Source: Trueperaceae bacterium
GTDB lineage: Bacteria; Deinococcota; Deinococci; Deinococcales; Trueperaceae
Assembly (NCBI GenBank): GCA_035703635.1
Contig: DASSXV010000086.1
Location: 1-40,119, forward strand
DNA length: 40,119 nucleotides
Reading direction: 5' to 3'
This document shows positions 4,496-26,625 of the stretch, piece after piece. The position numbers and the translations under genes are program-made. The notes beneath the pieces are model-generated. The model worked only from the letters and a program-made list of their open reading frames with translations. It had not been told where the DNA came from and did not search any database. The number at the start of each line of letters is the position of its first letter. Position 1 is the stretch's first letter.

Positions 4496-4569
4496 CTCGA
4501 AACGCGATAAAACCCGGTCTGTATCTGGGCGCCTGGGCCGGGTGGAGCGAGTGGCGCAACCGGTTCGAG
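4496..4569 (+). ncRNA. Cyclic di-GMP-II riboswitch aptamer (#1), upstream of the GH114 gene
   Basis: Sequence CTCGAAACGCGATAAA ACCCGGTC TGTATCTGGGCGCCTG GGCCGGGT GGAGCGAGTGGCGCAACCGGTTCGAG. It has a closing stem CTCGA/TCGAG, an 8-bp inner stem (4512-4519/4536-4543), a pseudoknot GCGCC 4529-4533/GGCGC 4553-4557, and the conserved TGGGC...GAG..AGT....CAACCG pattern of the class II (RF01786-type) aptamer. Confidence 0.85.
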
Positions 4570-4645
4570 TAGGCAAAGCCGCTTTTTCGTCTACATGTGC
4601 CGCAACTTGCTCCCGACAAGGCCTCGAGAAGCGGGGAAGCTGCAG

Positions 4646-5815
4646 ATGAACGCCAAACCCGGGAGCAGCGGCAAAGCCAAGATGATCACGTTACTCATCG
4701 GCAGTTTAGTGGTGGCTCTGGCCGCTGGCTGCTCCGCGACGGCCGCGCCGCAAGTGGCCGCCGGGATGATCCTCGCCAGCCACCACGCATCGCTTGACCA
4801 AGCCTTCCCGCTCGACGGTCAGCGCGTCAACGGCGAACTCCACGTGTTCGTGACCGAACCGGAGTCGAAGCTGAAGTTCGTCGACTTCTTCGTAGAGGAC
4901 TCTGCCGGCGAGCAAGTGAGAATCCGCCGCGACGACACCGCTCCATTCACCCCCATGCCAGACGGCGAACCCCTACGCCTTGACGACCTTGGTGAGGGCA
5001 GGCACGTCATCATCGGCGAACTGCACGACCTAGACGGTGGCACCACCGTCGCGCGCGCCGAGTTCGAAGTTGCGGCCACTACGGACCAGGCGCCGCCAAC
5101 CACACCGACCGGCGAGATCTGGCGGCCGAGGCCGGGTACTTCGTGGCAGTGGCAGCTAAGCGGGAAGCTTGACCTGAGCGTAGAGGCGGACGTGTACGAC
5201 ATCGACCTCGAGCTCACGTCGGCGGAAACCATCGCGCAGCTCCACGCCGCTGGCCGCCGCGTCATCTGCTACTTCAGCGCAGGCAGCTTCGAGTCGGTCC
5301 GCTCCGACGCCGCGCTCTTCCCCGCGTCCGTGAAGGGCAAGGCGATGGACGGCTGGCCTGAGCAGTGGCTCGACATCCGCGCCATCGACGCCCTGGCACC
5401 CGTCATGCTCGGCCGCCTCGACCTAGCCAGGGCCAAGGGCTGCGATGCGGTGGAGCCAGACAACGTCGACGGCTACGCCAACGACACCGGCTTCAACCTG
5501 CGCGCCGCCGACCAGTTGGCCTACAACCGCTGGCTGGCGAACGCCGCGCACGAACGCGGCCTGGCCATAGCCCTCAAGAACGACCTCGATCAGGTGCGCG
5601 ACCTCGTCGACTACTTCGACTTCGCCATCAACGAGGAGTGCTTCAGTTGGAACGAGTGCGAGCTGCTCACGCCGTTCATTCAAGCGGGCAAGGCCGTGTT
5701 CGGCGCCGAGTACGAACTCTCGACCGGCAGTTTCTGCTCCAAAGCGATTGCATTGAACATGGACTTCATCCTGAAGGACTGGAACCTCGGTGCTGCCCGC
5801 ACCTCCTGCAGGTAG
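4646..5815 (+). CDS. Endo-alpha-1,4-polygalactosaminidase, GH114 (Ega3-like), lipoprotein with an N-terminal Ig-like domain
   Basis: Lipobox ALAAGC and GH114 motifs WQWQL, VYDIDL, VICYFSAGS, WLDIR, KGCDAVEPDNVDGY, LKNDLDQ, FAINEEC and KAVFGAEY. Start ATG is at 4646 or 4682. Confidence 0.9.
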   Translation: MNAKPGSSGKAKMITLLIGSLVVALAAGCSATAAPQVAAGMILASHHASLDQAFPLDGQRVNGELHVFVTEPESKLKFVDFFVEDSAGEQVRIRRDDTAPFTPMPDGEPLRLDDLGEGRHVIIGELHDLDGGTTVARAEFEVAATTDQAPPTTPTGEIWRPRPGTSWQWQLSGKLDLSVEADVYDIDLELTSAETIAQLHAAGRRVICYFSAGSFESVRSDAALFPASVKGKAMDGWPEQWLDIRAIDALAPVMLGRLDLARAKGCDAVEPDNVDGYANDTGFNLRAADQLAYNRWLANAAHERGLAIALKNDLDQVRDLVDYFDFAINEECFSWNECELLTPFIQAGKAVFGAEYELSTGSFCSKAIALNMDFILKDWNLGAARTSCR

Positions 5816-5822
5816 CCGCTGT

Positions 5823-6536
5823 TCAGCCCGGCAAGCCGGTGACGTTACGGTTCGTGACCTGGACGCGCAGCCCGAGGTGGGTGCCGCGCTGCACCGCGAA
5901 GTCCGCTAAGTCTGGCTTGTTGGCGTAATCCAGGGCGTACACCTCACGGCCCGTAGCCCGCAGTAGCCGCAGGCGGGTGGCGTTGTCGAGGAGCTCGCGG
6001 CCGCGCAGCGCGCGGTAGCCGTCCTCCCACGTCGTCGAGAACGACTCGAACAAGAAGCCGTCAACGAACGGCGCTATCTCGCGGTGCAGGTGGTGACCGC
6101 GGTTGGCCAACAGGTAGCCGTCGCCGACCACGCCGCGCAGTTCGCTTAGTAGCGTCACCAAAGCCACCCGGCCGCCCGCCAACATGGGCGGAGTCTCGAG
6201 CGTGTCCAGCAGCAGCCCGGTGAAGCCGTCAGCCAACGCCACGTCTGCTTGCGCCCGCACGTGAGCCAACCACTCAGGGTGAGCCGGGTCTACGTAATGG
6301 CCGCCCCAGATGGGGTTGCGTTCGGCGAGTTGCCACGGCGCCTCGGGGCCCGTGTCCTCACCCAACGACAAGTAGGCCAACGCTTGGGTGCCGTGGGCGG
6401 CGAGGAGCTTGATGTCGGACGGGAAGTAGTGATCGGCCTGCAGTACCACGCGCTTGTGCCGTGCGAGGGTCGCCACCTCGCCGGAACCGTAGTAGACGAG
6501 GAGGTCGGGGTGGGACCTAGAGGAGGTAGACGGCAT
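5823..6536 (-). CDS. PelA-hydrolase-like (GH166/TM1410-like) alpha-1,4-galactosaminidase domain protein
   Basis: Motifs VYYG, LAYLSLGE, NPIWGGHYVD, GFTGLLLDT, LLANRG, VDGFLFES and YALDY. Its start overlaps the end of the upstream membrane-protein gene. Confidence 0.8.
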   Translation of the reverse strand: MPSTSSRSHPDLLVYYGSGEVATLARHKRVVLQADHYFPSDIKLLAAHGTQALAYLSLGEDTGPEAPWQLAERNPIWGGHYVDPAHPEWLAHVRAQADVALADGFTGLLLDTLETPPMLAGGRVALVTLLSELRGVVGDGYLLANRGHHLHREIAPFVDGFLFESFSTTWEDGYRALRGRELLDNATRLRLLRATGREVYALDYANKPDLADFAVQRGTHLGLRVQVTNRNVTGLPG

Positions 6537-7842
6537 AGCGGCCCACCTGCCTGACGCGCAACTGGGCTACGAGCAGCAAGACAAGCGCGAGGTAGGCGCT
6601 GACCACCAAGAACGGCATGCCAGCCACCGCCGCCACGCCGGCGAGCAGGAACGGGATGCTCGCCCCGGCCGGGTTCCCGAGCGCGAAACCAACGACCGAG
6701 ATGCCCAGGCTGAGGCCGAAGAGGCCGAAAGCGAACCAGTAGAAGTGCCAGCCCCCCACGCCCAGCACCGCCTCGATGATCAGCGCGGCAAGCAGCGGCA
6801 GGACGTACATGCCGACGTAAACGAACAACGCCGTGTGCGCGTACGTGCGGAACCCGGACGCGCTGGTCGAGCGCCACAGGCGCGCCGTGAGCGCAGCCTT
6901 GAGCATGATGAGGAAGCGTTGCGAGAGCAACAGCACCAGGAGCAATAGGACCCCGCCAGGCACCACGTCGCCAGCCGGGTCCTCGTGGCGCAGGAGCGCC
7001 AGGATGAGCAGCCCCTGTCCGACGCCGTAGAGGAACGGGTGCAGAGCAACGCCGATGCTGCGGCGCAACCAATCGAAGATGGGCCGCGTATCGCGCCACG
7101 CGAGCGGCAAGCACATTGCGGCCACGGCGACGACCACGATCAGTTGCGGCATCACTGCAGGCACGGGGAGCAGCGTGGCCAGTACGAGGCCAAGCAGTAC
7201 GAGCAGCGGAACGGTCAATGCCGCGACCCGCCTCTCGGCCCACAGCAGCGCGCCGACCGCGAACCACGTCAGTGTCGGGGCGAGGGTCGCTAACCCGTAC
7301 TGCAGCAGTGCCCAACTCCCGACTATCGCAAGTATGCCAAGTTGCACGAGGAACGCGAGGACGACGCCTTGCTCAGTCCGCAGCAGTTCTCCCTTGGCCT
7401 TCTGCAGCACGGCGGCGCCAACCTGCGACCACACGAGGATAACCATGGCGGGCGCCAGCATCTCGACCTGACTGAAGGCTCCGAGAAGGAAAGTGGCCAC
7501 GAACGCTAAGCCCATGGCCACCGGCGTTGCCCAATCGCCAGTGCGTTTACGTTTCACCTTGTAGCGGTCGCGTATGCGCGGCGTGCGCGCGTAAAGCTGG
7601 TGCGCCAACTCGAAGTGGCTGCTTACCCCGAAGCGCGCCAGCGCCGATGCGCTGTTGTACCCGAGCGCCTCGAGGTGGGCGACGATCTCGTACGGTCCGC
7701 TCGCCTCGAGGCAGAGGAGGTTGAGTGAGCGGCCGAGTTGGTCGACCGGCGCGCGGCTGCGGCGCTCAGGTCCGTCCCAGTTGCTAGCCGCCACTTCTGG
7801 GGGCACGTAATCGGGTGGGGTGTAAGCGACCGGCTGGCTCAC
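6517..7842 (-). CDS. Multi-pass membrane protein coupled to PelF (putative exporter/PelG functional analogue)
   Basis: About 10 or more hydrophobic segments follow a soluble N-terminus (EIVAHLEALGY...ARFG..SHFELAHQLYARTPR). GTGA start/stop overlap with pelF at 7839-7842. Confidence 0.65.
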   Translation of the reverse strand: MSQPVAYTPPDYVPPEVAASNWDGPERRSRAPVDQLGRSLNLLCLEASGPYEIVAHLEALGYNSASALARFGVSSHFELAHQLYARTPRIRDRYKVKRKRTGDWATPVAMGLAFVATFLLGAFSQVEMLAPAMVILVWSQVGAAVLQKAKGELLRTEQGVVLAFLVQLGILAIVGSWALLQYGLATLAPTLTWFAVGALLWAERRVAALTVPLLVLLGLVLATLLPVPAVMPQLIVVVAVAAMCLPLAWRDTRPIFDWLRRSIGVALHPFLYGVGQGLLILALLRHEDPAGDVVPGGVLLLLVLLLSQRFLIMLKAALTARLWRSTSASGFRTYAHTALFVYVGMYVLPLLAALIIEAVLGVGGWHFYWFAFGLFGLSLGISVVGFALGNPAGASIPFLLAGVAAVAGMPFLVVSAYLALVLLLVAQLRVRQVGRYAVYLL

Positions 7843-9254
7843 CGCGCCAACCCAACGCGGCTGGAGCGCGAGCCCATCTCGCCGTACAGTCCGCGGTAGC
7901 CGTCGTACATGCGCGAGAGCGTGAAGAGGCTAAGCGCGCGCTCCCTGGCGCCCTCACCGAGGCGACGCCTCAGCGGCACGTCGACTAATAGTTCAGCGAG
8001 GGCGGTGCCAAACTCCTCGGGCGCCCGCGGGTCGACCATGCGGCCGAAATCGCCGACAGCCTCGCCCACGCCCCCGACCTGCGTTGCCACCACTGGCCGG
8101 CCGCACATCATGGCCTCGATGGCCACGTAGGGGAAGCCCTCGGAGATGCTCGAAAGCGCCACGACGTCGGCCGCGTGATACGCGGTGTGAACGGGCTTCA
8201 CGGGGCCCTCGAAGGTCACGGACTTGGAGAGATCGAGTTCCTCGACGAGGCGTCTCACCTTGGCGTTGTATGCCTCGTTGCCCTTCGGCACCGGCCCGAA
8301 GAGCTTGAGGCGAGCCTCCGGCGCCACCTGCGTGACGGTCGTGAACGAACGGACGAGCGTTTCGAGGTCCTTGATGGGGTCGATGCGCCCGACCCACGAC
8401 ACCGTCGGCGCCTGGTCGGCGTGCCACGCCGCTTCGGGGAACGCCTCTGGCGCCACTCCGTTGTAGACCACGCGGGTCTTCTCCGCCGCGGCACCCAACT
8501 CGATCTGCCAGGTGCGGTTGAACTCGCTAACGGACACGACGAGGTCGGCGTCTTCATAGATGAGGCGAGCGAGGGCGAGATAGAAGCGTGAGCGTAGGAG
8601 CTTCATGCCTGGCGGGTTGCCTTCGCTCGTGAGGCTCAGGTAACGCTCGCGCAAGTACAGCCCGTGCTCCGTGAGCATGAGCGGGATGCCGTGCGCCTTG
8701 GCCGCCAACCAGGCCGGAATGGCCGACAAGCCGTTGGAGGTCGTGTGTGCCTGGTCGGCGACGGCGGGGATGAAGAGCAAAGGCCCTAGGGTGCCCTTTA
8801 GCCAATTGACGGATAACGCCACCTCGGCCATTGGCGGTTGTTCGCCGTTGGCGCGCCAGATGGCGAAGCGCACGGCATCCCAGGTGGACGGCTTGTCGAA
8901 ATACGGCCACAAGTCGACGGTGGTGCCGAGCGTGGCGAGGTCTAGCAGGCCCCTAGCGAAAGACTTGATGTCGTCATCTGCGAACCCGAGGAGGTTCTCG
9001 AGCCCGTTCCTGAACTCGAACTCGGCCTTGACCCCGCGGCCGGAACGCGCCGCCCGCGGGGTCCAGAGCCGCGCCGAGGTGAGGGCCCCGACGTTGGCTG
9101 GCAGAGAGTAGGCGGGCTCCGTTGGGAGCGGCCCTGTGACCTCGAGCAGGTGGTAGTCGTAGTCGGACATGCCCCTGACGAGCTGATCGCACCACGTGCT
9201 CACGCCACCCATGATCGACGGGTAGGTGCCTTCCGTTGTGAGCAGGATCTGCAT
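7839..9254 (-). CDS. pelF: GT4 glycosyltransferase PelF-like (DUF3492 N-terminus)
   Basis: Motifs LTTEGTYP..MGGVSTWCDQL, LMLTEHGLYLRER, GRIDPIKDLETL and SISEGFPYVAIEAM. GGAG upstream supports the ATG at 9254. Confidence 0.9.
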   Translation of the reverse strand: MQILLTTEGTYPSIMGGVSTWCDQLVRGMSDYDYHLLEVTGPLPTEPAYSLPANVGALTSARLWTPRAARSGRGVKAEFEFRNGLENLLGFADDDIKSFARGLLDLATLGTTVDLWPYFDKPSTWDAVRFAIWRANGEQPPMAEVALSVNWLKGTLGPLLFIPAVADQAHTTSNGLSAIPAWLAAKAHGIPLMLTEHGLYLRERYLSLTSEGNPPGMKLLRSRFYLALARLIYEDADLVVSVSEFNRTWQIELGAAAEKTRVVYNGVAPEAFPEAAWHADQAPTVSWVGRIDPIKDLETLVRSFTTVTQVAPEARLKLFGPVPKGNEAYNAKVRRLVEELDLSKSVTFEGPVKPVHTAYHAADVVALSSISEGFPYVAIEAMMCGRPVVATQVGGVGEAVGDFGRMVDPRAPEEFGTALAELLVDVPLRRRLGEGARERALSLFTLSRMYDGYRGLYGEMGSRSSRVGLAR

Positions 9255-9365
9255 GACGCTAGCTCCCGCGCACCGCGCCAGCGGCGGTGGCCACGGCAAG
9301 ACCGTGACCTCCGCGCTGGCGACGGAAGGCGAGTGGTGGGAGTGCGGCCACTAGCATGCGCAGTC

Positions 9366-12356
9366 CTAGTCCTTGAACTCGAAGCGGGCGCCGATGGTTG
9401 CGTCGGCACTGAGCGTGATGGTGCAGGTGACGCCGTCGCAGGCGCCAGTGAAGCCGTCGAAGGTCGAGCCGAGCAACGCGACGGGCGCGAGGGTGATGGT
9501 CGTGCCGGCCTTAACCTCGATCTCGCACTCGTCGATGCAAGCGGCGCCGTTCGGGCTGGTTATCACTACCCCGAAGCCGCTGCCGGACAGTTCGAGCGTC
9601 AGGGTGTGCATCACGACCTCAGGGTCCACCGCGGGTGCGACGGTTACCGTCGTTTCGCGAATGACATCTGCGCCGCCCGTCCAGCTAGCCACGAGTTCGT
9701 AAGTCGTGGTTGCCGTTGGGTTGACGGCGTGGTTGCCGCTGGCCGGTAGGCCCGTTACGATTTCCGCGCTGTCCTTCACGCGCAGGGCGATGTTCGTTGC
9801 GGTGCCGGTGACGGTCCAGTTGAGCTGGGTGCTCTCGCCCACCGTGATGGCGGCTGGTGAAGCGCTGAAGCTGGTGATGAGGGGTGCAGGCGTGACGGCG
9901 ACGGTGACCTCGGCCACTACGTCGGAGCCGCCCGTCCAGCTAGCCACGAGTTCGTAAGTCGTGGTCGCCGTTGGACTAACGGTGAGACTGCCTGCGTCAG
10001 GGAGGCCCGCTTCAACCACGCTGCCGCCCTTCACGCGCACCGCGAGGCTGGTGGCACTGCCGGTGACGCTCCAACGGAGTTGCGTGGTTTGGCCGGCATT
10101 GATTGCAGCTGGGTCAGCGGCGAACGTTCCGATGACGGGCATCACGGGCGGCGCTGCCGGTCCGACACTGAACGTCACGGACTGCCCGGCGCTGAACTCG
10201 CGCTGCGAGATCACGCGACCGTTGTAGGCGAGGTCGGTCGAGCCGCTGCCAAGCGACGCTCCCGTGAAGAACACCGGCCCGGCGTTCGCGGCGGTGAGGG
10301 TCACCGTGTTCGTCATGCGGTCCCATACGCCGGTGACTCCGGTGGCTAGGAACTCGGTGCGGGCGCGCACGTAATCGCCGGAGGCGTCGTTCGTGTACGA
10401 GAGGAGCGGCTCGTTGGCCACCGCGGCGTACTTGGTGAACAAGGCTGCGGTCCAGTCGTAGAGCGTTGATCTGCCCGCCTCGTACTCGTAGAAGTTGGGG
10501 ATGTGGAAGTAGTGCGGGTACGGCGAGCCGGAGAGAAGATGGACCAGGGCGATGTCGGTATCGAGATCCAGGATCTCTTCGTAGCTGAGCGGCTGAGTCA
10601 GTCCGGGGATGGGCTCAGTGCCGCCCGGCCCGTACGTCATGTTGTAGGCCTGCGTAACGGCTTCAGGCGTGGTGACGGTGGCGAACAGGTTAGTCGGCCA
10701 CCGTGGCACTAGGAACACGGCAGCGTTTATCGGGTGCTCGATGCCGCAGGCCCAGCAGTCGGGCTCATGGCTTGGGGTCGACATGTTGGACGCCAGGTAG
10801 CTGCGGCCACTGTCGACCACGGCTTGCAGCAGGTATGGGCTCGAGTGATCGAGGCCGAAGTCGACCTTCGGGCCGGTGTCCGGCCCTCCCGGCGCGTACC
10901 AGCCGAGGCCGGAGATGTCGCCAGTAACGAGGCTACGTACCGAGTTGGTCGGGTCGAGGCCCATGGCGGTGGCGAGGTTGTCGCTATTGCTGATCTCGGT
11001 GATTATCTCGTCATAGTTCGGGCCAGGATCGGGCAGTTCAGGGATCCAGTCCATGTACTCATGGCTCCAGGTGTGGTTCACCCAGCGGAACTCGCCAGCC
11101 AAGCACCTCGTCATGCTCGAGAGGGTGTGAGACGAGGCGGGTAGCTCGCAGTCGATGATGCTGCTTGGCTCGGCGTTATCACCGTTGAACGCCATCGCCC
11201 AAGTGAAACCTGGGGCAATGCCGCCGCCTAGCGTGCGTAGGCCCTGTTGTTGGGCCACGAGGCTGTAGGCGTCCTGGGCATCCAATTCAAACTCGACGTC
11301 TTGGCTGATACCGCCAACTCCAACGTCCCAGAAGCCGGTCTTGCTGAACCAGTCGTCGACGTCGGCCTGATAGCTGGCGCGCCGCTCGCCGATGTGCACG
11401 CCACGCATCGCCCAACGCAAGAGCGAGGGCCCGATCTGTTGGGTGTAGATGGCTGGTGTGTTCGATGCGCCCCAGGCCGGGTTGTTGTACAGCATCGTCA
11501 CGCGCTCGCGCCCGTCGGTCTCGGTAAGCAAGGCGAGGATGTCGTCGCCAGCCATGAGCAGTGGAGTGGTGCCGGGCAGGGGGTCGCGGCTCGGGAATCC
11601 ATCGCTTCCGTACACGTCGATCTCGCTGCCAGCGGGAAGGTCGTTGAATACGGTCAGGCCAGCCGCCGTCGGCGTTATGACCGCAGAATCCAAATCGGAC
11701 GGCGTCCAACTGCCCACTCCGAGATCCTCAGGTGCACTGTAGGGCGCCCCGTAAAGCGTTGCCTGGCGCACCCCGTAGTCGCGCTCGTAGTTGAACAGGA
11801 GCTCCCACTCGCCTGAGTCCAGTGCGGACTCCCAAGCTGGGGCGTAGACGAGGTTGCTGGTGCTAAGCAGTATGGCCTGGTAGCGCCCGACCCCGTCACC
11901 ACGCACGAGCCTGTCGGGCGTGAGGGTCTCTTCTGACGCCACGAACCAGTCGTACGGCGTGCCCGTCTGCTCGAGCAGCGCTATCCAGGCGCCGGTGGAG
12001 GGCTCTATCTCCCCCGCGTTGTTGGTCGCTGAGATGAGCAGCGCCTTCATCTCGACTTTGTCGCCCACCCCGAGCGGCCTCAACCACGTTTGCGGTTCGC
12101 CCTCCGGAATGGTGCCGAGGTGGAGCGGAGCGGAGTAGAACGGACCGCGTGGGACAACAACCGAGGGATTCCACGGCTCAGTCGCGTGGGTTGGCGCTGG
12201 CACTTCCTTGCGCGCGTCTTCGGCTTTGGTGACTGCGGGGCTGGTGCTGCATGCAACGAGCACGGCGGCTAGCGCAATGAACGTTATGAGCATGCGTAGC
12301 GCCGCTACCGGCACTTGTCTGCGGTTGGGGTTCCGGCCCTGCTTCACGCGGCTCAC
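9366..12356 (-). CDS. Agd3-like (CE18) polysaccharide de-N-acetylase lipoprotein with C-terminal Ig-like repeats
   Basis: Lipobox AVLVAC; Agd3-type motifs YERDYGVRQ, DVDDWF, FRWVNHTWSH, LVPRWPTN and HYFH; two ~85-aa Ig-like repeats and a terminal B-repeat-like domain (FDGFTGAC.G.TC). GTGA overlap with the upstream gene. Confidence 0.8.
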   Translation of the reverse strand: MSRVKQGRNPNRRQVPVAALRMLITFIALAAVLVACSTSPAVTKAEDARKEVPAPTHATEPWNPSVVVPRGPFYSAPLHLGTIPEGEPQTWLRPLGVGDKVEMKALLISATNNAGEIEPSTGAWIALLEQTGTPYDWFVASEETLTPDRLVRGDGVGRYQAILLSTSNLVYAPAWESALDSGEWELLFNYERDYGVRQATLYGAPYSAPEDLGVGSWTPSDLDSAVITPTAAGLTVFNDLPAGSEIDVYGSDGFPSRDPLPGTTPLLMAGDDILALLTETDGRERVTMLYNNPAWGASNTPAIYTQQIGPSLLRWAMRGVHIGERRASYQADVDDWFSKTGFWDVGVGGISQDVEFELDAQDAYSLVAQQQGLRTLGGGIAPGFTWAMAFNGDNAEPSSIIDCELPASSHTLSSMTRCLAGEFRWVNHTWSHEYMDWIPELPDPGPNYDEIITEISNSDNLATAMGLDPTNSVRSLVTGDISGLGWYAPGGPDTGPKVDFGLDHSSPYLLQAVVDSGRSYLASNMSTPSHEPDCWACGIEHPINAAVFLVPRWPTNLFATVTTPEAVTQAYNMTYGPGGTEPIPGLTQPLSYEEILDLDTDIALVHLLSGSPYPHYFHIPNFYEYEAGRSTLYDWTAALFTKYAAVANEPLLSYTNDASGDYVRARTEFLATGVTGVWDRMTNTVTLTAANAGPVFFTGASLGSGSTDLAYNGRVISQREFSAGQSVTFSVGPAAPPVMPVIGTFAADPAAINAGQTTQLRWSVTGSATSLAVRVKGGSVVEAGLPDAGSLTVSPTATTTYELVASWTGGSDVVAEVTVAVTPAPLITSFSASPAAITVGESTQLNWTVTGTATNIALRVKDSAEIVTGLPASGNHAVNPTATTTYELVASWTGGADVIRETTVTVAPAVDPEVVMHTLTLELSGSGFGVVITSPNGAACIDECEIEVKAGTTITLAPVALLGSTFDGFTGACDGVTCTITLSADATIGARFEFKD
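9672..9974. repeat. Intragenic direct repeat from a tandem Ig-like domain duplication
   Basis: GCCGCCCGTCCAGCTAGCCACGAGTTCGTAAGTCGTGGT is identical at 9672-9710 and 9927-9965 and extends to 47/48 nt. The 255-nt period equals 85 codons (PTATTTYELVASWTGG twice). Confidence 0.95.
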
Positions 12357-13180
12357 GGCTCCGTTCCGAGGTTGACGAGGCGTAACGCGCCGACTACCAG
12401 AAGCGCCGAGCTGGCGCGCGCCTGGGTCGTGGTCAGGCGCCCGAGGGTGTCGAGTGAACCCGTGCCAAAGCCAGCGTTCGTGAGTTCGGCGCGCGTAGCC
12501 TCAGGGAAGCTGAAGGCACCGAGGGAGTCGTCAGCCACGCAAGAGAAGGCAACGGTGCCGTCTGAGCCGACGAGGATGATCGCCGAGTTGGCGCCGCCGG
12601 GCGTCCAGCCGAACCGCGTATTGACCGTGATGTTCGCGGCGTCGAACCCCTGCAACGTGGGCGTCTTGCCGGTGGCGACCGTCACGTTGTTGAACGCGGG
12701 GAAAGCGCCAGTGGCTGCTAGTTGCAGAGAAAGGCCGTCGGTCGGGAGCGGCGCAAGGGCCGCTGCTAGTGAGTAGCGACCGTCCGGGCCGCGCTCTAGC
12801 GAACCGTAATCCGTGGCGCCCGTAAGGAGCTGGATGGTGCCCGCTAACAACCGATTGCCGCTGGGCGCGCCGATCACGCTGCCGCCGGTAGGGGCCGCGG
12901 CAGCCGACACGTCACACGTGCCGACTTGCGCACCGAACGGGCTGCCCATCAGCTCCTCCGCGCGCTTAGTGGTGAGCTCAACGAAGGTCGCCTGACCAGC
13001 AGGCGCCCCGACCTCAGTGGCCTGGCTGAGGAGCACCAAGCCAACGCGGTCAACGGACGCCGGGTCCGGCTGCTGCTGCGGGCGGCAACCAACTAACGTG
13101 AGGGCGAGGAGCGCCAACGCCGCCGCGGCGCCACGAGAGGACTTGCGCAAGAGTGAGTACTTCGACCGATGACTCTTCAT
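12353..13180 (-). CDS. Hypothetical lipoprotein, first gene of the Pel/GAG-like operon
   Basis: Basic N-terminus plus lipobox LTLVGC, a beta-rich body, and GGAAGGA/GGAG RBS-like sequence upstream. Confidence 0.75.
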   Translation of the reverse strand: MKSHRSKYSLLRKSSRGAAAALALLALTLVGCRPQQQPDPASVDRVGLVLLSQATEVGAPAGQATFVELTTKRAEELMGSPFGAQVGTCDVSAAAAPTGGSVIGAPSGNRLLAGTIQLLTGATDYGSLERGPDGRYSLAAALAPLPTDGLSLQLAATGAFPAFNNVTVATGKTPTLQGFDAANITVNTRFGWTPGGANSAIILVGSDGTVAFSCVADDSLGAFSFPEATRAELTNAGFGTGSLDTLGRLTTTQARASSALLVVGALRLVNLGTEP

Positions 13181-13199
13181 CTACTCCGGTCCTTCCAGT

Positions 13200-13272
13200 C
13201 CCCGCTCGGTTGCGCTACTGGCTAGACGTGCTCCAAGCGCCCAAATTGGGAGCACGCTTCATCGCCTCGGGT
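13200..13272 (-). ncRNA. Cyclic di-GMP-II riboswitch aptamer (#2), leader of the Pel/GAG-like operon
   Basis: Minus strand reads CCCGAGGCGATGAAG CGTGCTCC CAATTTGGGCGCTT GGAGCACG TCTAGCCAGTAGCGCAACCGAGCGGGG. It has a perfect 8-bp inner stem, a pseudoknot GCGCT/AGCGC, a closing stem CCCG/CGGG and the conserved TGAAG, TTTGGGC and AGTAG.GCAACCG elements. It ends about 20 nt before the ATG. Confidence 0.9.
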
Positions 13273-13521
13273 TGTGAGGTTGGCCCCCCGTAACAATTGG
13301 GCCGGCTGTCTTGTTAGTGATCCTAGAGGCGAACCTCTTACAGGGCTCTTAACTCTGTGCGCTGGTGCCAGGTGCCTGGCACGGCTCGGGGGAAGCGGTC
13401 GTCTTGCCTTGTAACTACTTTGCCACAAGCGCCTGGCTAGAATCGACTTACGGTCGGGTAGCCTGGTCTTGGGCCAGCCTCGCACATCGAGCGAGCCCTA
13501 ACCTCGAGGAGGACAAGAACG

Positions 13522-15114: not shown

Positions 15115-15123
15115 ATGACCCGG

Positions 15124-17905: not shown

Positions 17906-17909
17906 CGAG

Positions 17910-19082: not shown

Positions 19083-20230
19083 GCCTTGCCGCGCCGCGCA
19101 AGGAGTTCTCGGTAGACGGCCTCCCACTGGTCGACCACGCCAGCAAGGCCGAAGTTCAGTTCGATCTCATGATGAGCCGCCTCACCCATGGCGCGCGTCT
19201 CATCCTCGCCCAACTGCATGAGCCTAAGCATGGCCTCGGCCAAAGCGGTTGGGTCGCGAGGGGGCACTACGAAGCCGGTCTTGCCGTCGGTCACCACCTC
19301 ACGGTTACCGCCTACATCCGTAACCACCGCTGGGAGCCGCGAGGCACCCGCCTCGAGCAGCACCATCGGCAGCCCCTCCCACGCTGACGACATCACGTAC
19401 GCGTCGGCAGCAGCCATGAGGTCCACCACGTCTTTGCGCGCCCCCAACATCCGGAAGTGCGCGCCGTCTAGTCCGGCCGCTTGGACAAGTCGGTCGAGCT
19501 CACCGTGAAGGTTGCCTTCGCCCGCGACCAAGATTGTCGTTGGCGCCGCGTCGTTTCTTGCGGCTAGTTGTCGCACCGCCTCGATTAGGTTCGGGTAGTC
19601 CTTCTGCTCTTCGAGGCGCCCAACGGCCAGCCACAAGAAGGTGCCGGGGGCTATGCCGAGTTCCTGACGCTTCGCTTCCCGCGCGCCGGGTTGCGGCTGG
19701 AAGTTCGCGAGGTCGAGGCCGTTCGGCATGTACTTTATGCGGGCTTTGGGCGTGGCGCCGACGGCGACGAAGTGCTCGACGCAGAGGCGACAGACGTTGG
19801 TGGTCAGGTCGCAGAGTGGGTCGGTAACGCGGTAGGCGAGTTCGCGCCAACGTGCGCCCTCGGAGTAGTTGTGGGCGGTAGAGATCTGCACAGGCATGGG
19901 TGAGAGCAAGCGCGCCAAGCGCGTAAGGAGGTTGGCGTGCACCATGTGGCTGTGGACTACGTCGGGGCGGTTGGCTCGCACGACGTTGGTTAGCTTGAAG
20001 AGTGCCCGCGGATCACCGATACCGCGCTGCATGGCGAGACTATGGAACGGGATCTCAAGCTCCTGCAGCTCTGACTCGAACGCCTCTGCGTCACGCATGC
20101 TGACCAGGGTCACGGTGTGCCCTCTACGTTTCAACTCGGCAGCCAACAGAAAGACCTGAACCTCGGCGCCGCCTTGCATAAGGGACGTGGTAACGAACTG
20201 AACGCTAAGTGGCTGACCAGCGTTAGACAT
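19079..20230 (-). CDS. Glycosyltransferase family 4 (WbnK-like)
   Basis: Motifs GGAEVQ, PDVVHSHMVHAN, VGRLEEQKDY and SSAWEGLPMVLLEA; GGAGAGG RBS. Confidence 0.9.
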   Translation of the reverse strand: MSNAGQPLSVQFVTTSLMQGGAEVQVFLLAAELKRRGHTVTLVSMRDAEAFESELQELEIPFHSLAMQRGIGDPRALFKLTNVVRANRPDVVHSHMVHANLLTRLARLLSPMPVQISTAHNYSEGARWRELAYRVTDPLCDLTTNVCRLCVEHFVAVGATPKARIKYMPNGLDLANFQPQPGAREAKRQELGIAPGTFLWLAVGRLEEQKDYPNLIEAVRQLAARNDAAPTTILVAGEGNLHGELDRLVQAAGLDGAHFRMLGARKDVVDLMAAADAYVMSSAWEGLPMVLLEAGASRLPAVVTDVGGNREVVTDGKTGFVVPPRDPTALAEAMLRLMQLGEDETRAMGEAAHHEIELNFGLAGVVDQWEAVYRELLARRGKA

Positions 20231-20396
20231 CCGAACCTCTCCGGCCGCGCCGCACTGAAGGGCGCTGGCCGCGACGGGAAGTTTAGCACCTGCGCCGCGG
20301 CGGCCTGGGACGCTGCCGCGCAGGACGCAGTGCGGCGAGCTTTAGAATGCAGGTCGGCCGTTGCAGAACGCCGCCACTGGAGTACCGCCGCGCCAG

Positions 20397-21830
20397 ATGA
20401 ACCCTAAGCTGAGAAGAACTGTTCAATACCTGCTGACCGTAGTGCTCGGTCAGGGCCTGTCGTTCCTGCTCCTGCCGGTGGTGACGCGCTTTCTAGATCC
20501 CGTCGAGTACGGCGAGTACGCTCTTGCGCTCACCGTATCCGGGCTCGTTGGCATGTTCGCATCTGGTTGGGTCCGCAACGTTGGCTTGCGCCTCTATTAC
20601 GACGCTAGCGAGCGCGGCACCACGCGCGGTTTCTACCTTGGGACGGCGCTCGTCCAGGCCGTGCTTGCATCCGCGCTCTACGGCGCCGTGCTACTCGGGC
20701 TGCAGGCCTTCGATCTCTTACCTGCGCGCATGGGCGTGTTGCTTGCCGCTGGCCTCGTGCTAATCATTGGCGACCAGTACGGCTACGCCGTCACCCTGCT
20801 CCGCGCGGAGGAGCGCACGACCGCCTTCACCGCCGCGGAGGTAGGCAGCGGCCTTCTGCGCTTTGGCGCCACCCTCGGCGGCCTGTATGCGGGCTTCGCC
20901 ACGGCGCAACTCCTGTTCTTCGCGATGGCCGCAGCGTACTTGGTTGGCACCCTGTTCGCGGTGCCGATGCTATGGCGGCGCCTCAGCGGTCCGAGCCGGA
21001 TCGACTTCAAGGGGCTAGTAGAGACGGTGCGCGCGGGCCCCTCCGCCCTGCCGTTCTCTGTGGCCGCTTGGCTAGATAACCTCGCTAGCCGTCTCATATT
21101 GCAAGGGTTCCTCGGCACCGCCGTGGTCGGCGTCTTCAGCGTCGGCTACTCGATCGGGGAGCGGCTCGTTGGCAGCCTCACGCAGGCCGTCTTCATGATG
21201 GCGTGGCCGAGCATCCTCAACGCCTGGCGCGAGGGTGGAGTCAAGCTCGCGCGCCAAGCCTTGAGTGACGCGCAGCGCATCTACGCGTACCTCACCCTCG
21301 GGCCAGTCCTGTTCCTCGTGATCTTCGGCAGCGAGGTGACGCGCCTCCTGACGGGCCCCGAATACCGCGACGCGAGCGTGGTGGTGCCGCTCGTGGCCAC
21401 GGCCATGTGGTTCCGCGGGCTGTCCTCGTACTTGAACCGCCACCTCGAGCTGAACAAGCGCTACGCGCACCTGTCGCTCGTCGCCATTTGCGGGGCGCTC
21501 GTGAACGTTGGACTGAGCTTCCTGCTCGTCAAGGACTACGGGATGGTCGGGGTCGCGACGGCGACGGTCTTCAGCAACTCGCTAACGTGCGCTTTCTATT
21601 TCCTCACTCGCGATAGGGAGCTAACTCGCGTGCGCTTCGGCTCGTTCGCGGCAGCGGGGGGCCTCGCGGCCTTGGCGTGGGCGCTATCGTCGGCCGTCGG
21701 GGTCTTCGCTACGCCGGGTGGGGTAGTGGTCGGTGACGTCAAGATGGCGGTGTTCATCGCCGTGTACGCTCTCGGCTTCGCAGGAGTGTTCCTAGGGCGC
21801 AGGCTGCTCAGCGCCCGAGGCGCGCTGTGA
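20397..21830 (+). CDS. wzx: Polysaccharide flippase (Wzx/PST family)
   Basis: FLLLPVVTRFLDPVEYGEY motif, about 12-14 TM segments, VGVFSVGYSI and YGMVGVATAT. ATG at 20397 has GGAG upstream. Confidence 0.85.
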   Translation: MNPKLRRTVQYLLTVVLGQGLSFLLLPVVTRFLDPVEYGEYALALTVSGLVGMFASGWVRNVGLRLYYDASERGTTRGFYLGTALVQAVLASALYGAVLLGLQAFDLLPARMGVLLAAGLVLIIGDQYGYAVTLLRAEERTTAFTAAEVGSGLLRFGATLGGLYAGFATAQLLFFAMAAAYLVGTLFAVPMLWRRLSGPSRIDFKGLVETVRAGPSALPFSVAAWLDNLASRLILQGFLGTAVVGVFSVGYSIGERLVGSLTQAVFMMAWPSILNAWREGGVKLARQALSDAQRIYAYLTLGPVLFLVIFGSEVTRLLTGPEYRDASVVVPLVATAMWFRGLSSYLNRHLELNKRYAHLSLVAICGALVNVGLSFLLVKDYGMVGVATATVFSNSLTCAFYFLTRDRELTRVRFGSFAAAGGLAALAWALSSAVGVFATPGGVVVGDVKMAVFIAVYALGFAGVFLGRRLLSARGAL

Positions 21831-23133
21831 CTTCTCCCCAGGTACCGATCGCGAGCACGAGAGCCAACGCTATCCAGTAGAGGAAGCCGTCCGGCGCGGT
21901 CGAGGTCACGCACGCGCCAAGCAGGAACAACGTCAGGCCGACCCCGGCAAGGCCCAACGTGCCGCGCACGCGCCAACTGACGACGAGGCCCGCGAAGTGC
22001 AACGCCAAGAACAGTCCGAGGCCAACGAAGCCGAACTCGTACAAGACCTCGAGGTAGGCGTTGTGCGTCGATGTAAGCGTGCCGAAGCCGCGCTGCACGA
22101 CGTCTACGCTGCTTTCGAAGCCGTTACCGAGGAGCAGCTCCTTGACGTCGCCCTCACGGTAGGCGCCATACACCGCCTGCCAGATCGGCGTGCGGCTGCC
22201 GCCAGACTCGACCCGCTCGCTCGTGAAGCGCTGCACCAGCCCTTCGCCACCGGGCAGTATCGCGCCAGCTCCGATCATCGCGAGGAGCGCGACCACGACC
22301 AGCAACTTGCGCCAGTCCTGCACGACGAGACGCGTGAAAATGGCGACGAGCGCGAGGCCGGCGGCGATGGCCATGCCGCGCGAGGCTAACAGCAACAGTG
22401 AGTACGCCAGCACCCCAGTAAGGAGTAACAACAGCGCACCTTGCCACCGGCGCCCAGCGGTGCTCAATGCCTGAACACTGGCCGCCGCAGCGATCACGAA
22501 CCCGAGCCCGACGTAGAAGGCCACGACGTTCTCGTTAACGTCCACGTCGCCGCGATAGGCGAAGCCGCCGCGAATGGCGCTCTCGATCACCCAGCCGGCC
22601 ACGCCAGTGGAGGCCAGCACGGCGGCGCCAGCCACCAACTTCACGCCGCGCTGCGTCCGGAACTGCAGGTAGGCGATGGCGCCCAAAAGGTACGCAAGCA
22701 CGCGCTGGATGATGGCGAAGTCGATGGCCTGGACGAAGCCAACGAACGACGCTGCCACCACGGCGAGGAACGCGAAGTAGAGCCAGAAGTACGTCGATCG
22801 CACCCTGATGCCCTGGCCGAGTAATGCCGCGACCATGCTGAACACGAACGCCGCATAGAACGGATAGAAGAACCCGTTGATGGTGAGGCCGCTGAAGATC
22901 GTCTCGTAACCGCAGAACGCCAACCAGTAAAGCCCAACGACGATCTCGGACTTGTAACTGCTGTTCATGAACAGCAGGAAGACGCCAAGCACCAAGACCC
23001 CACCAAGCGCGATCTCTGCAGACAGCGCCGCCAGCGCCCCGATCAGCACGGCGCCGATCAGCAACCAGACGCGCACTGCGGCCTGGCCGCGCGCTTCGTC
23101 AGCGCCACTACGCGGCAACCTCGTAACCGACAT
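21808..23133 (-). CDS. O-antigen ligase/Wzy-like polymerase
   Basis: Multi-TM protein with LLASRG, SGGSRTPIW, LLGNG and THNAYLEVLYEFGFVG (Wzy_C motif). ATG at 23133 is preferred over the ORF-track start at 23223, which would overlap the divergent gene. Confidence 0.85.
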   Translation of the reverse strand: MSVTRLPRSGADEARGQAAVRVWLLIGAVLIGALAALSAEIALGGVLVLGVFLLFMNSSYKSEIVVGLYWLAFCGYETIFSGLTINGFFYPFYAAFVFSMVAALLGQGIRVRSTYFWLYFAFLAVVAASFVGFVQAIDFAIIQRVLAYLLGAIAYLQFRTQRGVKLVAGAAVLASTGVAGWVIESAIRGGFAYRGDVDVNENVVAFYVGLGFVIAAAASVQALSTAGRRWQGALLLLLTGVLAYSLLLLASRGMAIAAGLALVAIFTRLVVQDWRKLLVVVALLAMIGAGAILPGGEGLVQRFTSERVESGGSRTPIWQAVYGAYREGDVKELLLGNGFESSVDVVQRGFGTLTSTHNAYLEVLYEFGFVGLGLFLALHFAGLVVSWRVRGTLGLAGVGLTLFLLGACVTSTAPDGFLYWIALALVLAIGTWGEVTARLGR

Positions 23134-23208
23134 CGCCAGTACTTTACTCCGGGCTCCGCCAGCCGCGGTTCGTAAGTCGGCAGGCGCCCTCTCACGTAAT
23201 CTAGGCGG

Positions 23209-24348
23209 GTGCCAGACGCTCACCCCAACCCCAAGGTCCTGTTCATCATGGCAAGCTACGCCGTGGGAGGCACCGAGTTGCAGTTGGCCGCGCTGCTAGC
23301 GAACCGCCCAGCGTGGGCCGCAGGCTACACCCTCGAGACCATCACGTTCCTCCCGCCACGTTCGAGCGCGGTCACCCAACTGTTCGAGGCAGAGGGCGTT
23401 AGCAACACGCTCATCAACCGCGAGGCGCTGTCGTTCCCGCGGTTCTTCTGGCGCCTCCTCACGCAGGTGCGGCGCTCGCGGCCTGACGTACTGCATGCCA
23501 TGCTCGACTCATCCACCGGCGCATGGGGACGCCTGGCTGGTGTGCTGGTCGGGGTTCCTGCCATCGTGCAGTCGGACCGCTCGGTGATGGAGGAGGGCAC
23601 CGGCACGCATAGACGGCTCAGGCCGTTCCTCGACCGCCGCACGCAGCGTTTCCTGCCCAACGCCAACGCCATAGCCGAGAGGCTGATGCGCAGTGGCGTG
23701 CCGCGGGAGCGCATTACGGTCGTGCCTTCAGGTGTCGACCTGGCGCGCTTCGACCCGGCCAGCGTTCAACCTACCGGCCGTTACCGCAGCGCGGCGGGAG
23801 GCGTAGTAGCTGGCTTCGTTGGGCGCTTTCACGCCGTGAAGCGCCTCGACGTACTGCTGGACGCGGTTGCCTCCCTACCTGAGGCCCAGCGGCCAGCGCG
23901 CCTGGTGCTTGCGGGGGACGGCCCAGAGATGGCCGCCGTGCAGGCGCGAGTAGCAGCCGAACCCTGGCTACGCGAGCACGTCGAGCTGCTCGGGGCGTGC
24001 GACGACGTACCAGGCTTCCTGGCGGAGATCGATTACCTCATCCTCTCCTCGGAAGTCGAAGGTGCGCCGAACGCCGTCATAGAAGCCATGGCGATGGGCA
24101 AGCCGGTGGTCGCAACGCGGGTCTCTGACGTACCTGGCATTGTCAAGGGAGCCGGGTTCCTCGCGGAGCCAGGAGACGCGGCCTCGTTGGCTGGCGCCAT
24201 AGCGCAGATGCAGGCCCTCACGCCGGCCGCGCGGGCGGAACTAGGGCGGCACGGACGCCTGAACGTCGAGGCCAACTACGACATGAAGGTAGTCGCCGAA
24301 CGCTTCTGGGAGGCGCACCGTCAACTCCTCACGCGGCGTGCGCGTTAG
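23209..24348 (+). CDS. Glycosyltransferase family 4
   Basis: Motifs GGTELQL, VGRFHAVKR and SSEVEGAPNAVIEAMAMGKPVVAT. Confidence 0.9.
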   Translation: MPDAHPNPKVLFIMASYAVGGTELQLAALLANRPAWAAGYTLETITFLPPRSSAVTQLFEAEGVSNTLINREALSFPRFFWRLLTQVRRSRPDVLHAMLDSSTGAWGRLAGVLVGVPAIVQSDRSVMEEGTGTHRRLRPFLDRRTQRFLPNANAIAERLMRSGVPRERITVVPSGVDLARFDPASVQPTGRYRSAAGGVVAGFVGRFHAVKRLDVLLDAVASLPEAQRPARLVLAGDGPEMAAVQARVAAEPWLREHVELLGACDDVPGFLAEIDYLILSSEVEGAPNAVIEAMAMGKPVVATRVSDVPGIVKGAGFLAEPGDAASLAGAIAQMQALTPAARAELGRHGRLNVEANYDMKVVAERFWEAHRQLLTRRAR

Positions 24349-26273
24349 GAGTTGGCACGGCTCCACTGCTGATACATGAGCACGGGCCATAACCGGTGTT
24401 GCCAATCGGCCTTGCCTGAGAGGTGCTGCTGCCACAGCTCACGAAGTGGCTCGGCGCGGAACTGCCCCTCCAGCTCGAGCGCCTGGACGGACAAAAGTCC
24501 GTCTGCCCAGCCCTTCAGCGGTCCACGTAGCCAGGCGCTGATCGGTACGCCGAAACCTTGCTTGGGACGGTCAACCAGCGCTCGCGGCACGTGCCGGTAG
24601 AGAAGCTGCTTGAGCAACCACTTCTGCTCACCGGCGCGCACGCGCAGGTCGTGGGGAAGCGACCAGGCGAACTCGACCACACGGTGATCCAACAGCGGCA
24701 CGCGCGTCTCTAGCGAGTGAGACATGGCGGCACGGTCGACCTTGACGAGCACGTCATCCGGTAGGTACGAGCGGGTGTCGAACGCCATCATGCGCTCAGT
24801 TGGGTGGGTGCGCGCCAACTCGGCCTTGGCCGCCCACGATGGGGTTGGGGTGGCCCCGCTCTTCAGGACCGCTGCTGGATCGGGCCAGTTGGAGATGCGC
24901 ACGTCGTACAACGCGGCGACGTCGCTCGCGCTGAACGCGGTGCGGAAGCCGCGCACACGGTCGGAGAAGAGGTGGGGGAAGCCCCCGACCTGCAACTCAA
25001 CCATCACGCGTTGCAAGGCGCTGGCGGGTATGGCGCTCATGCCCAAGCTGGCTGCGCGCCGCACGGTCGGGTTGAGGGCCGCCGCGCGCGACCATAGTCG
25101 GCTCGTTCTGGCGTAGCGGCTGTAGCCGGCGAAGAGTTCGTCACCGCCGTCGCCTGAGAGCGCCACCGTCACTTGGGTGCGCGCCAACCCAGCAAGCAAC
25201 CACGTTGGAATGGCCGAGGAGTCGCCGAAAGGTTCGTCGTAGATGACCGGGAGTTTCGGGATCACGGCTTGAGCCTCAGCGGGAGTCACGACGAGCTCCG
25301 CATGCTCGGTTCCAAGGTGCTTGGCTACCTCGCGCGCGGCGGCCGACTCGTCGAACGCGTTCTCACTAAACCCGATGGTGAACGTCTTGACCGGAGCGCC
25401 GCCCAGACTCTGCATGAGCGCCACTACCATGCTTGAGTCGATGCCACCGGAGAGGAAGGCGCCCAGCGGCACGTCAGACATGAGCTGGCCGCGCACGGAC
25501 CGGGAGAGGAGGCGCTCCAACTCGTCGAGGGCCTCTTCGTCACTCCCCGCGAACGTGGAGGTGCGCGCCGCGACTTCCGTTAGCGACCAGTATGGCGTCG
25601 GCTCAGGCAGCGTTGCCCCGCTGGCGGCGTCGACCGTGACGCTCGTGCCAGGCGGCAGCTTGTAGATGCCTTCGTAGATCGACAGTGGGGCCGGGATGTA
25701 ACCGTGCTTCAGGAACGAGGAGAGCGCTCCCTGGTCGATCGTTCCGCTGAACGCGGGGTGTGCTCTAAGGGCCTTCAGCTCTGAGCCGAACAGCAACGTC
25801 CGCCCCTTCTTGCCGTAGTACATGGGCTTTTCACCCAACCGGTCGCGGGCCAACGTGAGCCGCGCGGTCTCGCGGTCCCACACGGCTACCGCGAACATGC
25901 CGACACTGCGCCTGAGGGTCTCCTCCAAGCCGAAGGCCTCGAAGCCCGCCAGCAGCGACTCGGTGTCGGAGTGGCCGCGCCAAGCTGGCGCTGGCCGAAC
26001 GAGAGCGCGGAGCTCTTCGTGGTTGTAGATCTCGCCGTTGAACACGATGACGTAGCGGCCACTAGCAGAGGTCATCGGTTGGTGGCCAGCCGGGCTGAGG
26101 TCCACGATCGCCAGGCGGCGGTGCGCAAGCGCCACGCCACGAGGCGCGTCCAGCCATACTCCGGCGTCATCTGGACCGCGGTGGCTGACAGCAAGTGCCA
26201 TGCGCGCCAAGCTCTCTTTGGCGCCCTCTTCGCTAAACCCGCCGGTCTCGATGAAGCCCGTAATGCCGCACAT
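24345..26273 (-). CDS. asnB: Asparagine synthase (glutamine-hydrolysing)-family amidotransferase, EPS-associated
   Basis: MCGITG Ntn start, HRGPD, HRRLAIVDL, FNGEIYN, FLSGGIDSS, ALSGDGGDELF and ETRVPLLD. Confidence 0.92.
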   Translation of the reverse strand: MCGITGFIETGGFSEEGAKESLARMALAVSHRGPDDAGVWLDAPRGVALAHRRLAIVDLSPAGHQPMTSASGRYVIVFNGEIYNHEELRALVRPAPAWRGHSDTESLLAGFEAFGLEETLRRSVGMFAVAVWDRETARLTLARDRLGEKPMYYGKKGRTLLFGSELKALRAHPAFSGTIDQGALSSFLKHGYIPAPLSIYEGIYKLPPGTSVTVDAASGATLPEPTPYWSLTEVAARTSTFAGSDEEALDELERLLSRSVRGQLMSDVPLGAFLSGGIDSSMVVALMQSLGGAPVKTFTIGFSENAFDESAAAREVAKHLGTEHAELVVTPAEAQAVIPKLPVIYDEPFGDSSAIPTWLLAGLARTQVTVALSGDGGDELFAGYSRYARTSRLWSRAAALNPTVRRAASLGMSAIPASALQRVMVELQVGGFPHLFSDRVRGFRTAFSASDVAALYDVRISNWPDPAAVLKSGATPTPSWAAKAELARTHPTERMMAFDTRSYLPDDVLVKVDRAAMSHSLETRVPLLDHRVVEFAWSLPHDLRVRAGEQKWLLKQLLYRHVPRALVDRPKQGFGVPISAWLRGPLKGWADGLLSVQALELEGQFRAEPLRELWQQHLSGKADWQHRLWPVLMYQQWSRANS

Positions 26274-26551
26274 TCCAGCCCGCACACTACACCGCTGACG
26301 GTTGCCTCGAGGCCGGCGGCGTCATAGGGCCGGTCTAATCAGATGGGGCCTTAGTCATAGAACCCTCTCATCTGTGGGCTGTAACTTAGTCCTTGTCGGG
26401 TTCCATTAGGGCCCGCCACTCGAAAGCGATGATGCGTGCGCCGCAAAGTGGGCGCTTGGTGCGCGCGGAGCTAGTAGCGCAACCGGTCGAGTTCTTTTCG
26501 TCTTTTCAAGAACTGGTTAAGTACCCACCTAGTGGACATCTGGAAATGGTG

Positions 26552-26625
26552 TCCGGAGGCTATGAGCCGTGTATCCCGACTTGGGCATCAAGGGACACGG
26601 GGAGCCAGTGATGCAACCGGCCGGA
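26552..26625 (+). ncRNA. Cyclic di-GMP-II riboswitch aptamer (#3), upstream of the PL9-like lipoprotein
   Basis: Sequence TCCGGAGGCTATGAG CCGTGTATCCC GACTTGGGCATCAA GGGACACGG GGAGCCAGTGATGCAACCGGCCGGA. It has a closing stem TCCGG/CCGGA, an inner stem with a 2-nt bulge, a pseudoknot GCATCA/TGATGC and the conserved TTGGGC and GAG..AGT..TGCAACCG elements. Confidence 0.88.

Follow-up and report, generated by a model that had tools for sequence, protein, structure and literature searches.

Class II riboswitches for cyclic di-GMP (c-di-GMP), their tandem arrangements, and bacterial operons containing the deacetylase gene agd3 have each been published. We analyzed a stretch of 40,119 nucleotides (nt) from a Trueperaceae bacterium (GenBank assembly GCA_035703635.1, contig DASSXV010000086.1, positions 1 to 40,119; hereafter the window), in which these known parts are predicted to be joined in a new wiring. 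Four aptamers stand before a GH114 lipoprotein gene, a polysaccharide synthesis operon that resembles those for Pel and galactosaminogalactan, and a PL9-like lyase gene. Taken as a whole, our account is that they are translational riboswitches which turn the enzymes off and, less certainly, the synthesis operon on when c-di-GMP is high, and we consider it somewhat better supported than its rivals together.

The aptamers agree with the class represented by Rfam family RF01786 and structure 3Q3Z in their full-length match, pseudoknot, pocket bases and, apart from changes in two of the copies, kink-turn region. Tandem c-di-GMP-II riboswitches are known as 59 doublets and 9 triplets (PMC9481103), and c-di-GMP riboswitches, both single and contiguous, are reported to be enriched in Deinococcota (PMC12452182). 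The tandem in the window resembles the known class II tandems in that a single surface-protein gene is preceded by two complete aptamers, and differs from them in its target, a PL9-like lyase, in having a clear output for the second aptamer only, and in that no consensus terminator was found. The four class II switches in C. difficile are described as acting ON (PMC11477304), whereas the platforms predicted here, in Trueperaceae, are translational OFF platforms. The C. difficile circuit of PPEP-1 and adhesin, in which a surface structure and the enzyme that releases it are controlled inversely by riboswitches (PMC11477304), would have a counterpart here, with the difference that C. difficile uses class I for OFF and class II for ON, whereas a single class would serve both directions in the window and the genes concern polysaccharide.

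Bacterial agd3 operons have been reported with Deinococcus-Thermus among their hosts (PMC7229062, Bamford et al. 2020). They have in common with the window an Agd3 homologue, a cytoplasmic glycosyltransferase, a multi-spanning membrane protein and GH114 genes; the window differs in the riboswitch in front, in an extra lipoprotein, and in that its membrane protein can be given a MOP fold. The word 'riboswitch' is absent from the main text of that paper. PelD is the receptor by which c-di-GMP controls Pel systems (PMC13254593, PMC7112194, PMC7112168); in streptococci the protein is without the binding domain. The systems of P. aeruginosa (pelA-G) and B. cereus (pelDEA(DA)FG; PMC7112168, PMC13254593) are similar to the window in a PelF above the cut-off, a likely exporter of MOP fold (predicted here), and a glycoside hydrolase encoded by a gene of its own next to the operon. 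Unlike them, the window yields no Pfam match to PelD or PelG, its deacetylase is of the Agd3 and not the PelA type, and its c-di-GMP input is predicted at the mRNA rather than via PelD. In the main text of the open-access literature searched, we found no paper that connects class II riboswitches with operons of agd3 or pelF, or with Trueperaceae.

Identity of the aptamers

RF01786 has four matches in the window (cmscan, Rfam), all full length, with E-values from 1e-12 to 8e-11 and a gathering cut-off of 53.5 bits. They are located at 4491-4572(+) (aptamer 1, 65.3 bits), 13194-13278(-) (aptamer 2, 59.2 bits, the lowest of the four) and, as a tandem, 26413-26497(+) (aptamer 3, 62.4 bits) and 26546-26631(+) (aptamer 4, 62.6 bits); no fifth class II copy was detected in the window at E up to 1. 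An earlier note on this DNA had proposed three riboswitches, at 4496-4569(+), 13200-13272(-) and 26552-26625(+), and had suggested a covariance-model search as a check. All of these sites are real, at 59 to 65 bits against the cut-off, and the pseudoknots quoted for them (GCGCC/GGCGC, GCGCT/AGCGC and GCATCA/TGATGC) and the quoted inner stems are present in the sequence; the copy missed at 26413-26497 brings the number to four and makes the last site a tandem.

All four aptamers are intergenic, on the same strand as an open reading frame (ORF) that begins 14-170 nt downstream, and these ORFs carry a lipobox-like cysteine as read from their translations. The placement in leaders of lipoprotein genes tied to polysaccharide, as the note had it, is borne out, and it is kept within the genus. 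The mutual covariation that the note singled out is the ordinary stem variation of the family among paralogous copies, with no local origin shown, and its phrase 'invisible to ORF annotation' was too strong, as a routine Rfam scan detects all copies. The label 'biofilm' is one that we infer from the protein families. The targets named below (PelF, Agd3, GH114 and PL9) and the direction of control go beyond the note.

All four copies keep the pocket sequence GCAACCG, with the equivalents of A69, A70 and G73, the residues that touch c-di-GMP in structure 3Q3Z (PMC13715770). The first position of P2 is a standard pair in all four, and the pseudoknot loop and its 3' strand can be read as complementary in each. 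The variant models RF03169 (GAG, 45.7-57.6 bits) and RF03170 (GCG, 39.8-52.2 bits) score below RF01786 at every copy (57.6 and 52.2 bits at aptamer 1, 45.7 and 42.8 bits at aptamer 2), and a variant ligand class was rejected on account of these lower scores. It is nevertheless conceivable that in vivo these aptamers sense a different cyclic dinucleotide, 3',3'-cyclic GMP-AMP (3',3'-cGAMP) or c-di-AMP: 3',3'-cGAMP is bound at 11 nM by a derivative of class II (PMC13715770), the host genome has one DAC domain, and all four copies pass the GAG cut-off and aptamer 1 the GCG cut-off as well. We consider this very improbable, given that the canonical model is the best for all four, that the pocket reads A-A-G, and that the genome encodes 11 GGDEF domains (with the GG(D/E)EF site kept in 9) and one MshEN protein. 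By their sequence the four copies are almost certainly class II c-di-GMP aptamers.

The kink-turn is less uniform. We take it to be one with tandem G-A pairs at the positions that we assign to it in RF01786, and its consensus is kept in aptamers 3 and 4. Aptamer 1 has an A in place of the first G and aptamer 2 has CUA in place of GGA on the opposite strand; the orthologues are without either change, and both changes tell against working switches at these two sites. Aptamer 2 also has one base inserted after the pocket. Aptamers 1 and 2 could on these grounds be drifting remnants that have lost switching, as the kink-turn changes are private to the window copies, aptamer 2 has the lowest score, and loss or decay is seen at orthologous sites in genomes G002, G014 and G141. 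Both copies, however, pass the cut-off and keep the pseudoknot, the pocket and the spacing to the AUG found in the orthologues, and we regard decay as improbable.

The host genome (G000; 2.9 Mb, 66% GC, 97.65% complete, metagenome-type) contains seven RF01786 aptamers. The local regulon suggested in the earlier note holds to the extent that four of the seven lie in the window; the other three (loci L001 and L004), a tandem before a GH26 lipoprotein gene and a single aptamer before an Ig-domain lipoprotein gene, are on two other contigs (C53 and C23). No PilZ match was obtained in the genome in a search whose positive control matched, and no class I c-di-GMP aptamer was found in a search whose control gave no match either. 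RF01786 is common in the group, with matches in 33 of 41 genomes and matches over the cut-off in 29.

Predicted direction of switching

To assess the direction of switching, we computed how much it costs to open the ribosome-binding region when the aptamer is forced to form, which mimics bound ligand, and subtracted the cost in the free fold. Leaders were compared with shuffled sequences (12 for each lyase leader), and robustness was examined with 8 boundary settings. Twelve tandem lyase leaders, out of 133 loci examined, entered the comparison, and L121 stands in for the lyase leader of the window because the two are identical through the start codon. The difference exceeded +0.5 in 9 of the 12 and was negative in none, with a mean of +3.5 compared to -0.2 in the shuffles. 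Over the boundary settings all 12 medians were positive, as were 88 of the 96 cells, and no cell was negative. The single-aptamer lyase leader L151, run apart, gave +1.5.

The structural basis predicted for this result is a platform at 26637-26671(+), with a Shine-Dalgarno (SD)-like GGGAG at 26654-26658. Its switch strand, 26637-26646(+), has two alternative partners, the pocket strand of aptamer 4 (26610-26618) and the strand that carries the start codon (26666-26671). Without ligand, a linker hairpin would form, the switch strand would pair with the pocket strand and the AUG would be free; with ligand, the aptamer would be fixed and the released strand would pair with the AUG strand, leaving the SD in the loop, so that the predicted output is OFF. 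In all 13 lyase leaders an in-frame AUG lies within the same platform hairpin. The linker hairpin (26534-26554(+)) hides the outer 5' strand of the P1 helix of aptamer 4; all 13 leaders have it, with 4-9 base pairs in the stem, and across these it covaries, both strands having changed at pairs 2, 5, 6 and 8.

Of the tandem pair, only aptamer 4 has a clear platform, whereas in a pseudo-cooperative tandem riboswitch both aptamers would have independent ones. At 26519-26528(+) lies a strand able to pair with the pseudoknot loop of aptamer 3 (26448-26457), and its motif was matched in 11 of 13 leaders. No intrinsic terminator was found on the coding strand of the three leaders in the window, and one terminator-like site lies on the opposite strand, at 26715-26697. 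These features could also be those of a relay, in which ligand at aptamer 3 frees the strand that opens the linker hairpin, aptamer 4 then folds, and the two give one cooperative output. The conserved anti-aptamer strand adjoins the covarying linker hairpin, the leader of the window has no consensus terminator, and a coupling of -3.2 to -4.1 kcal/mol was computed for 3 of 12 leaders, the window-like L121 included. In the other 9 of 12, however, the coupling was -0.3 to +1.2, the releasing hairpin is missing in several leaders, some of them with a U-rich run after P1, and in G008 the first aptamer is degenerate while the second is intact. A relay is, in our judgment, rather unlikely, and we retain an OFF platform operated by aptamer 4.

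For the GH114 leader we propose the same logic, acting over about 85 nt. In the platform of aptamer 1 (4596-4648(+)), the strand 4596-4612 pairs with the 3' side of the aptamer or with the ribosome-binding region at 4632-4643; the AUG is at 4646, and the prediction is again OFF with ligand. A short hairpin at 4484-4498(+), which would mask P1 on its 5' side, is a predicted ligand-free element; a matching hairpin can be read in all seven orthologous leaders and folds in several free-state structures. The difference was above +0.5 in 6 of 7 GH114 leaders, with a mean of +4.0 compared to -0.4 in the shuffles, and 6 of 7 medians were positive over the boundary settings. These folding models make it likely that the GH114 and PL9-like enzymes are under translational OFF switches when c-di-GMP is high.

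The synthesis operon is less clear. Aptamer 2 is followed by a short platform (13178-13200(-)) with an SD-like GAAGGA at 13195-13190 and the AUG 27 nt after the pocket, and this platform leans to ON. Its P1 would be weak and bulged, and the 3' strand of P1 could pair with another partner in the stretch from SD to AUG, giving ON with ligand. In all seven orthologous leaders the distance from pocket to AUG is 26-27 nt; this second partner, located past the SD, can be read in six of them and is seen in three of the seven free minimum-energy structures. Over the boundary settings 4 of 7 medians were negative, one positive and two neutral, and 28 of 56 cells were negative against 13 positive. Because of the conserved AUG spacing and the second P1 partner, ON is favored for the synthesis operon, though not proved, and we give it a slight preference on these models. 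Alternatively, all three leaders could be OFF, or the synthesis leader neutral, in which case c-di-GMP would lower the surface lipoproteins together and GH114 would process polymer beside Agd3 instead of dispersing it. The synthesis leaders are indeed not separable from their shuffles, a positive median and two neutral ones occur among the seven, and co-regulation of agd3 and ega3 has been described in a fungus (PMC7229062). The excess of negative cells and the second P1 partner point the other way, and we judge this alternative unlikely, if less so than a relay in the lyase tandem.

Several results weigh against the directions proposed above. The folding leaves out pseudoknot and ligand energies, and the leaders are related to one another. 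In the lyase leaders neither the 9-nt switch helix nor the outer AUG pairs vary, and both were also required by the search pattern; among the leaders listed from a search without that requirement, all eight of the tandem type have the switch strand. The single-aptamer lyase leader of G003, with a shorter switch strand, reached only +0.6, and the GH114 leader L044 is opposite in direction, with a median of -2.4. The synthesis leaders averaged -0.5 and their shuffles -1.2, so that the control is negative too. With P1 re-registered the values were -1.0 compared to -0.7 in the shuffles for the SD window, with one row mis-registered, and the second shuffled value of that run was -0.4. The synthesis leader of the window itself gave +0.6, then -0.4 and +0.6 after re-registration, and -0.8 over the boundary settings. 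The switch strand is absent from two more distant lyase leaders, L057 and L095. A compensatory start-codon hairpin that had been read by eye in G003 was discarded, being missing from the bound-state fold.

No sigma-70 consensus promoter was found in the three leaders. A candidate promoter upstream of the tandem, at 26366-26387(+), consists of a TCTCAT box and a -10-like TAACTT 11 nt later. The motif TCTCAY / GTAAGA recurs upstream of aptamers, often as a direct repeat with a period of 9-11 nt: in the window at 4444-4457(+), 13353-13335(-) and 26366-26387(+), and also at loci L046, L063 and L066. It is present in 27 of 78 leaders compared to a mean of 6.5 and a maximum of 13 in shuffles, the leaders not being independent of one another, and is possibly a response-regulator box common to the regulon.

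Genes downstream of the aptamers

Aptamer 2 heads an operon of five genes, convergent with the GH114 lipoprotein gene. The latter (4646-5815(+); the ORF opens at 4595, with the start likely at 4646) encodes an Ega3-like endo-alpha-1,4-galactosaminidase (PF03537, 280 bits; 6OJB at E 7e-57 and 6OJ1 at E 1e-56). The first operon gene, 12353-13180(-), codes for a lipoprotein of 275 amino acids (aa) with no Pfam match, whose nearest atlas clusters are unnamed. It is followed by an Agd3-like (CE18/CBM87) deacetylase lipoprotein with C-terminal repeats (9366-12356(-)), which a single-sequence PDB search did not match and a profile search did (6NWZ, E 4e-39). Of the catalytic motifs CM1-4, the window protein has DD, HxxxH, PRWP and His, and so keeps the residues for metal binding and catalysis; DD, HxxxH and the last His are invariant in 11 of 11 aligned proteins, and the Arg is not. 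Next come a PelF-family GT4 glycosyltransferase (7839-9299(-), likely start near 9257; NF038011 at 178 bits against a cut-off of 100, with DUF3492 and GT4), a 441-aa membrane protein (6517-7842(-)) and, as the last gene, a small GH114/TM1410-like protein (5823-6536(-); PF03537 at 20.7 bits and TIGR01370 at E 2e-6, both below cut-off). The PelF would polymerise a chain of the alpha-1,4-GalNAc type, the membrane protein would export it, Agd3 would deacetylate it, and GH114 would cut the deacetylated polymer. A galE-family epimerase is present elsewhere in the genome.

By sequence the 441-aa protein matched no Pfam family, PelG PF16933 included (its positive control matched), and no PDB entry. 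A structure model (pLDDT 91.8, 122 sequences) predicts a MOP (MATE/MurJ/Wzx) fold: the top 14 rows of the structural alignment are MOP proteins, with a best Z of 18.1 over 328 aligned residues at a root-mean-square deviation of 4.8, and the next row has 7.2. Foldseek gave weak MOP rows, at E 0.02 or worse. PelG is MOP-like, and we infer that the protein is likely a PelG-equivalent exporter. Its family has 676 representatives at E up to 0.001 and shares an N-terminal helical part that is conserved but falls outside the structural match; residues 1-96 of the window protein are a candidate PelF-docking or regulatory domain.

No operon gene contains a PelD or GGDEF domain by Pfam. PelD PF16963 was found neither in the host genome nor, over the cut-off, in any of 251 genomes of the phylum, in searches run without a positive control, and the operon has no unassigned gene of the PelE type, the PelE profile itself not having been searched. 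The most specific form of our account is that of a PelD-less machine of the fungal Agd3/Ega3 type with c-di-GMP input wholly via RNA, where one riboswitch class would set synthesis ON and both dispersal enzymes OFF and the pseudoknot strand of the lyase tandem would be a start-codon decoy. This form we put forward tentatively, holding it rather less probable than the contrary.

The tandem precedes a lipoprotein with a PL9-like right-handed beta-helix (26668-28656(+)), matched to Pel9A (1RU4, E 2e-27) with GNGFKLGG aligned; against NF041899 it reaches 100.7 bits, far under the cut-off of 740. The gene sits in a Wzx/Wzy polysaccharide cluster with amidotransferases, and the lyase would cut a uronate-type polymer made by that cluster. 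A second PL9-like lipoprotein gene (29909-31831(-)) is convergent on the first across a glycosyltransferase gene, and an Ig-domain lipoprotein gene lies at 32109-34202(-); no aptamer precedes either. Beside the cluster, genes for an AsnB-like amidotransferase, an AMP-binding ligase, an NAD-synthase-like protein and a further, unassigned ORF stand in a row at 34372-40117(+), and possibly serve amidation or acylation of the polymer.

Distribution and evolution

In the genus, pelF is present in 6 of 18 genomes, the host genome counted, and 21 more genomes of the family carry it outside the genus (27 of 128 in total). All six pelF-bearing genomes of the genus have an aptamer before the GH114 lipoprotein gene and five of the six have one before the operon head; the head gene has none in G002 and in one of two copies in G014. 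Outside the genus, an aptamer was detected at only 1 of 24 pelF loci (21 from the family and 3 from other families, several cut by contig ends), the other 23 being without a detectable one. These absences count against our account. The lone exception (L237 9127-9209, in G141) has C at the equivalent of A70, lies about 560 nt before pelF in front of an apparently decayed leader, and may be a relic or a variant.

The most plausible reading of these sequence comparisons is that the riboswitch joined the cassette later. With the cassette in 27 of 128 family genomes and the aptamer at 1 of 24 loci outside the genus, the lack of PelD is the wider and likely the older state. The riboswitch, as a late addition, therefore did not arise as the replacement of PelD, and that scenario, which we had considered, was rejected; the PelD-less cassette also extends to other families.

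G014, G015 and G016 have an extra upstream unit consisting of a second lipoprotein and a much longer Agd3. Such longer Agd3-like lipoproteins (L038 3410-11308, L043 4037-11923 and L041 7498-12867) have many C-terminal repeats and their own head lipoprotein gene and aptamer.

The lyase leader type was found in 13 of 128 family genomes from four genera, and a control with the reversed pattern gave none. A further 28 ORFs downstream of aptamers were scanned, chosen by hand from the aptamer set so as to avoid redundancy. A lipobox-like motif is present in 19 of them; 4 are GH26 proteins, 3 subtilases and 2 beta-helix proteins, 4 have an Ig domain and 10 are without a family. Locus L046 of G018 has three class II aptamers over the cut-off and one weak one within 6 kb (6581-12280), preceding GH99-like, AlgF-like and MBOAT genes. 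The locus of the window is present as assembled contigs in the sludge RNA runs X5-X8. A pattern scan of metagenomes was set aside, as an aptamer was present in 3 of 120 stretches and the rest were chance inverted repeats.

Significance

When bacterial agd3 operons were reported in 2020 they were called uncharacterized, and the text consulted names no regulator for them (PMC7229062). A c-di-GMP riboswitch before an agd3 operon ties the operon to a biofilm signal and indicates how it could be induced. If the predicted directions are true, the class II translational OFF switches of these bacteria would be compact natural parts with a sign opposite to that of the class II switches of C. difficile.

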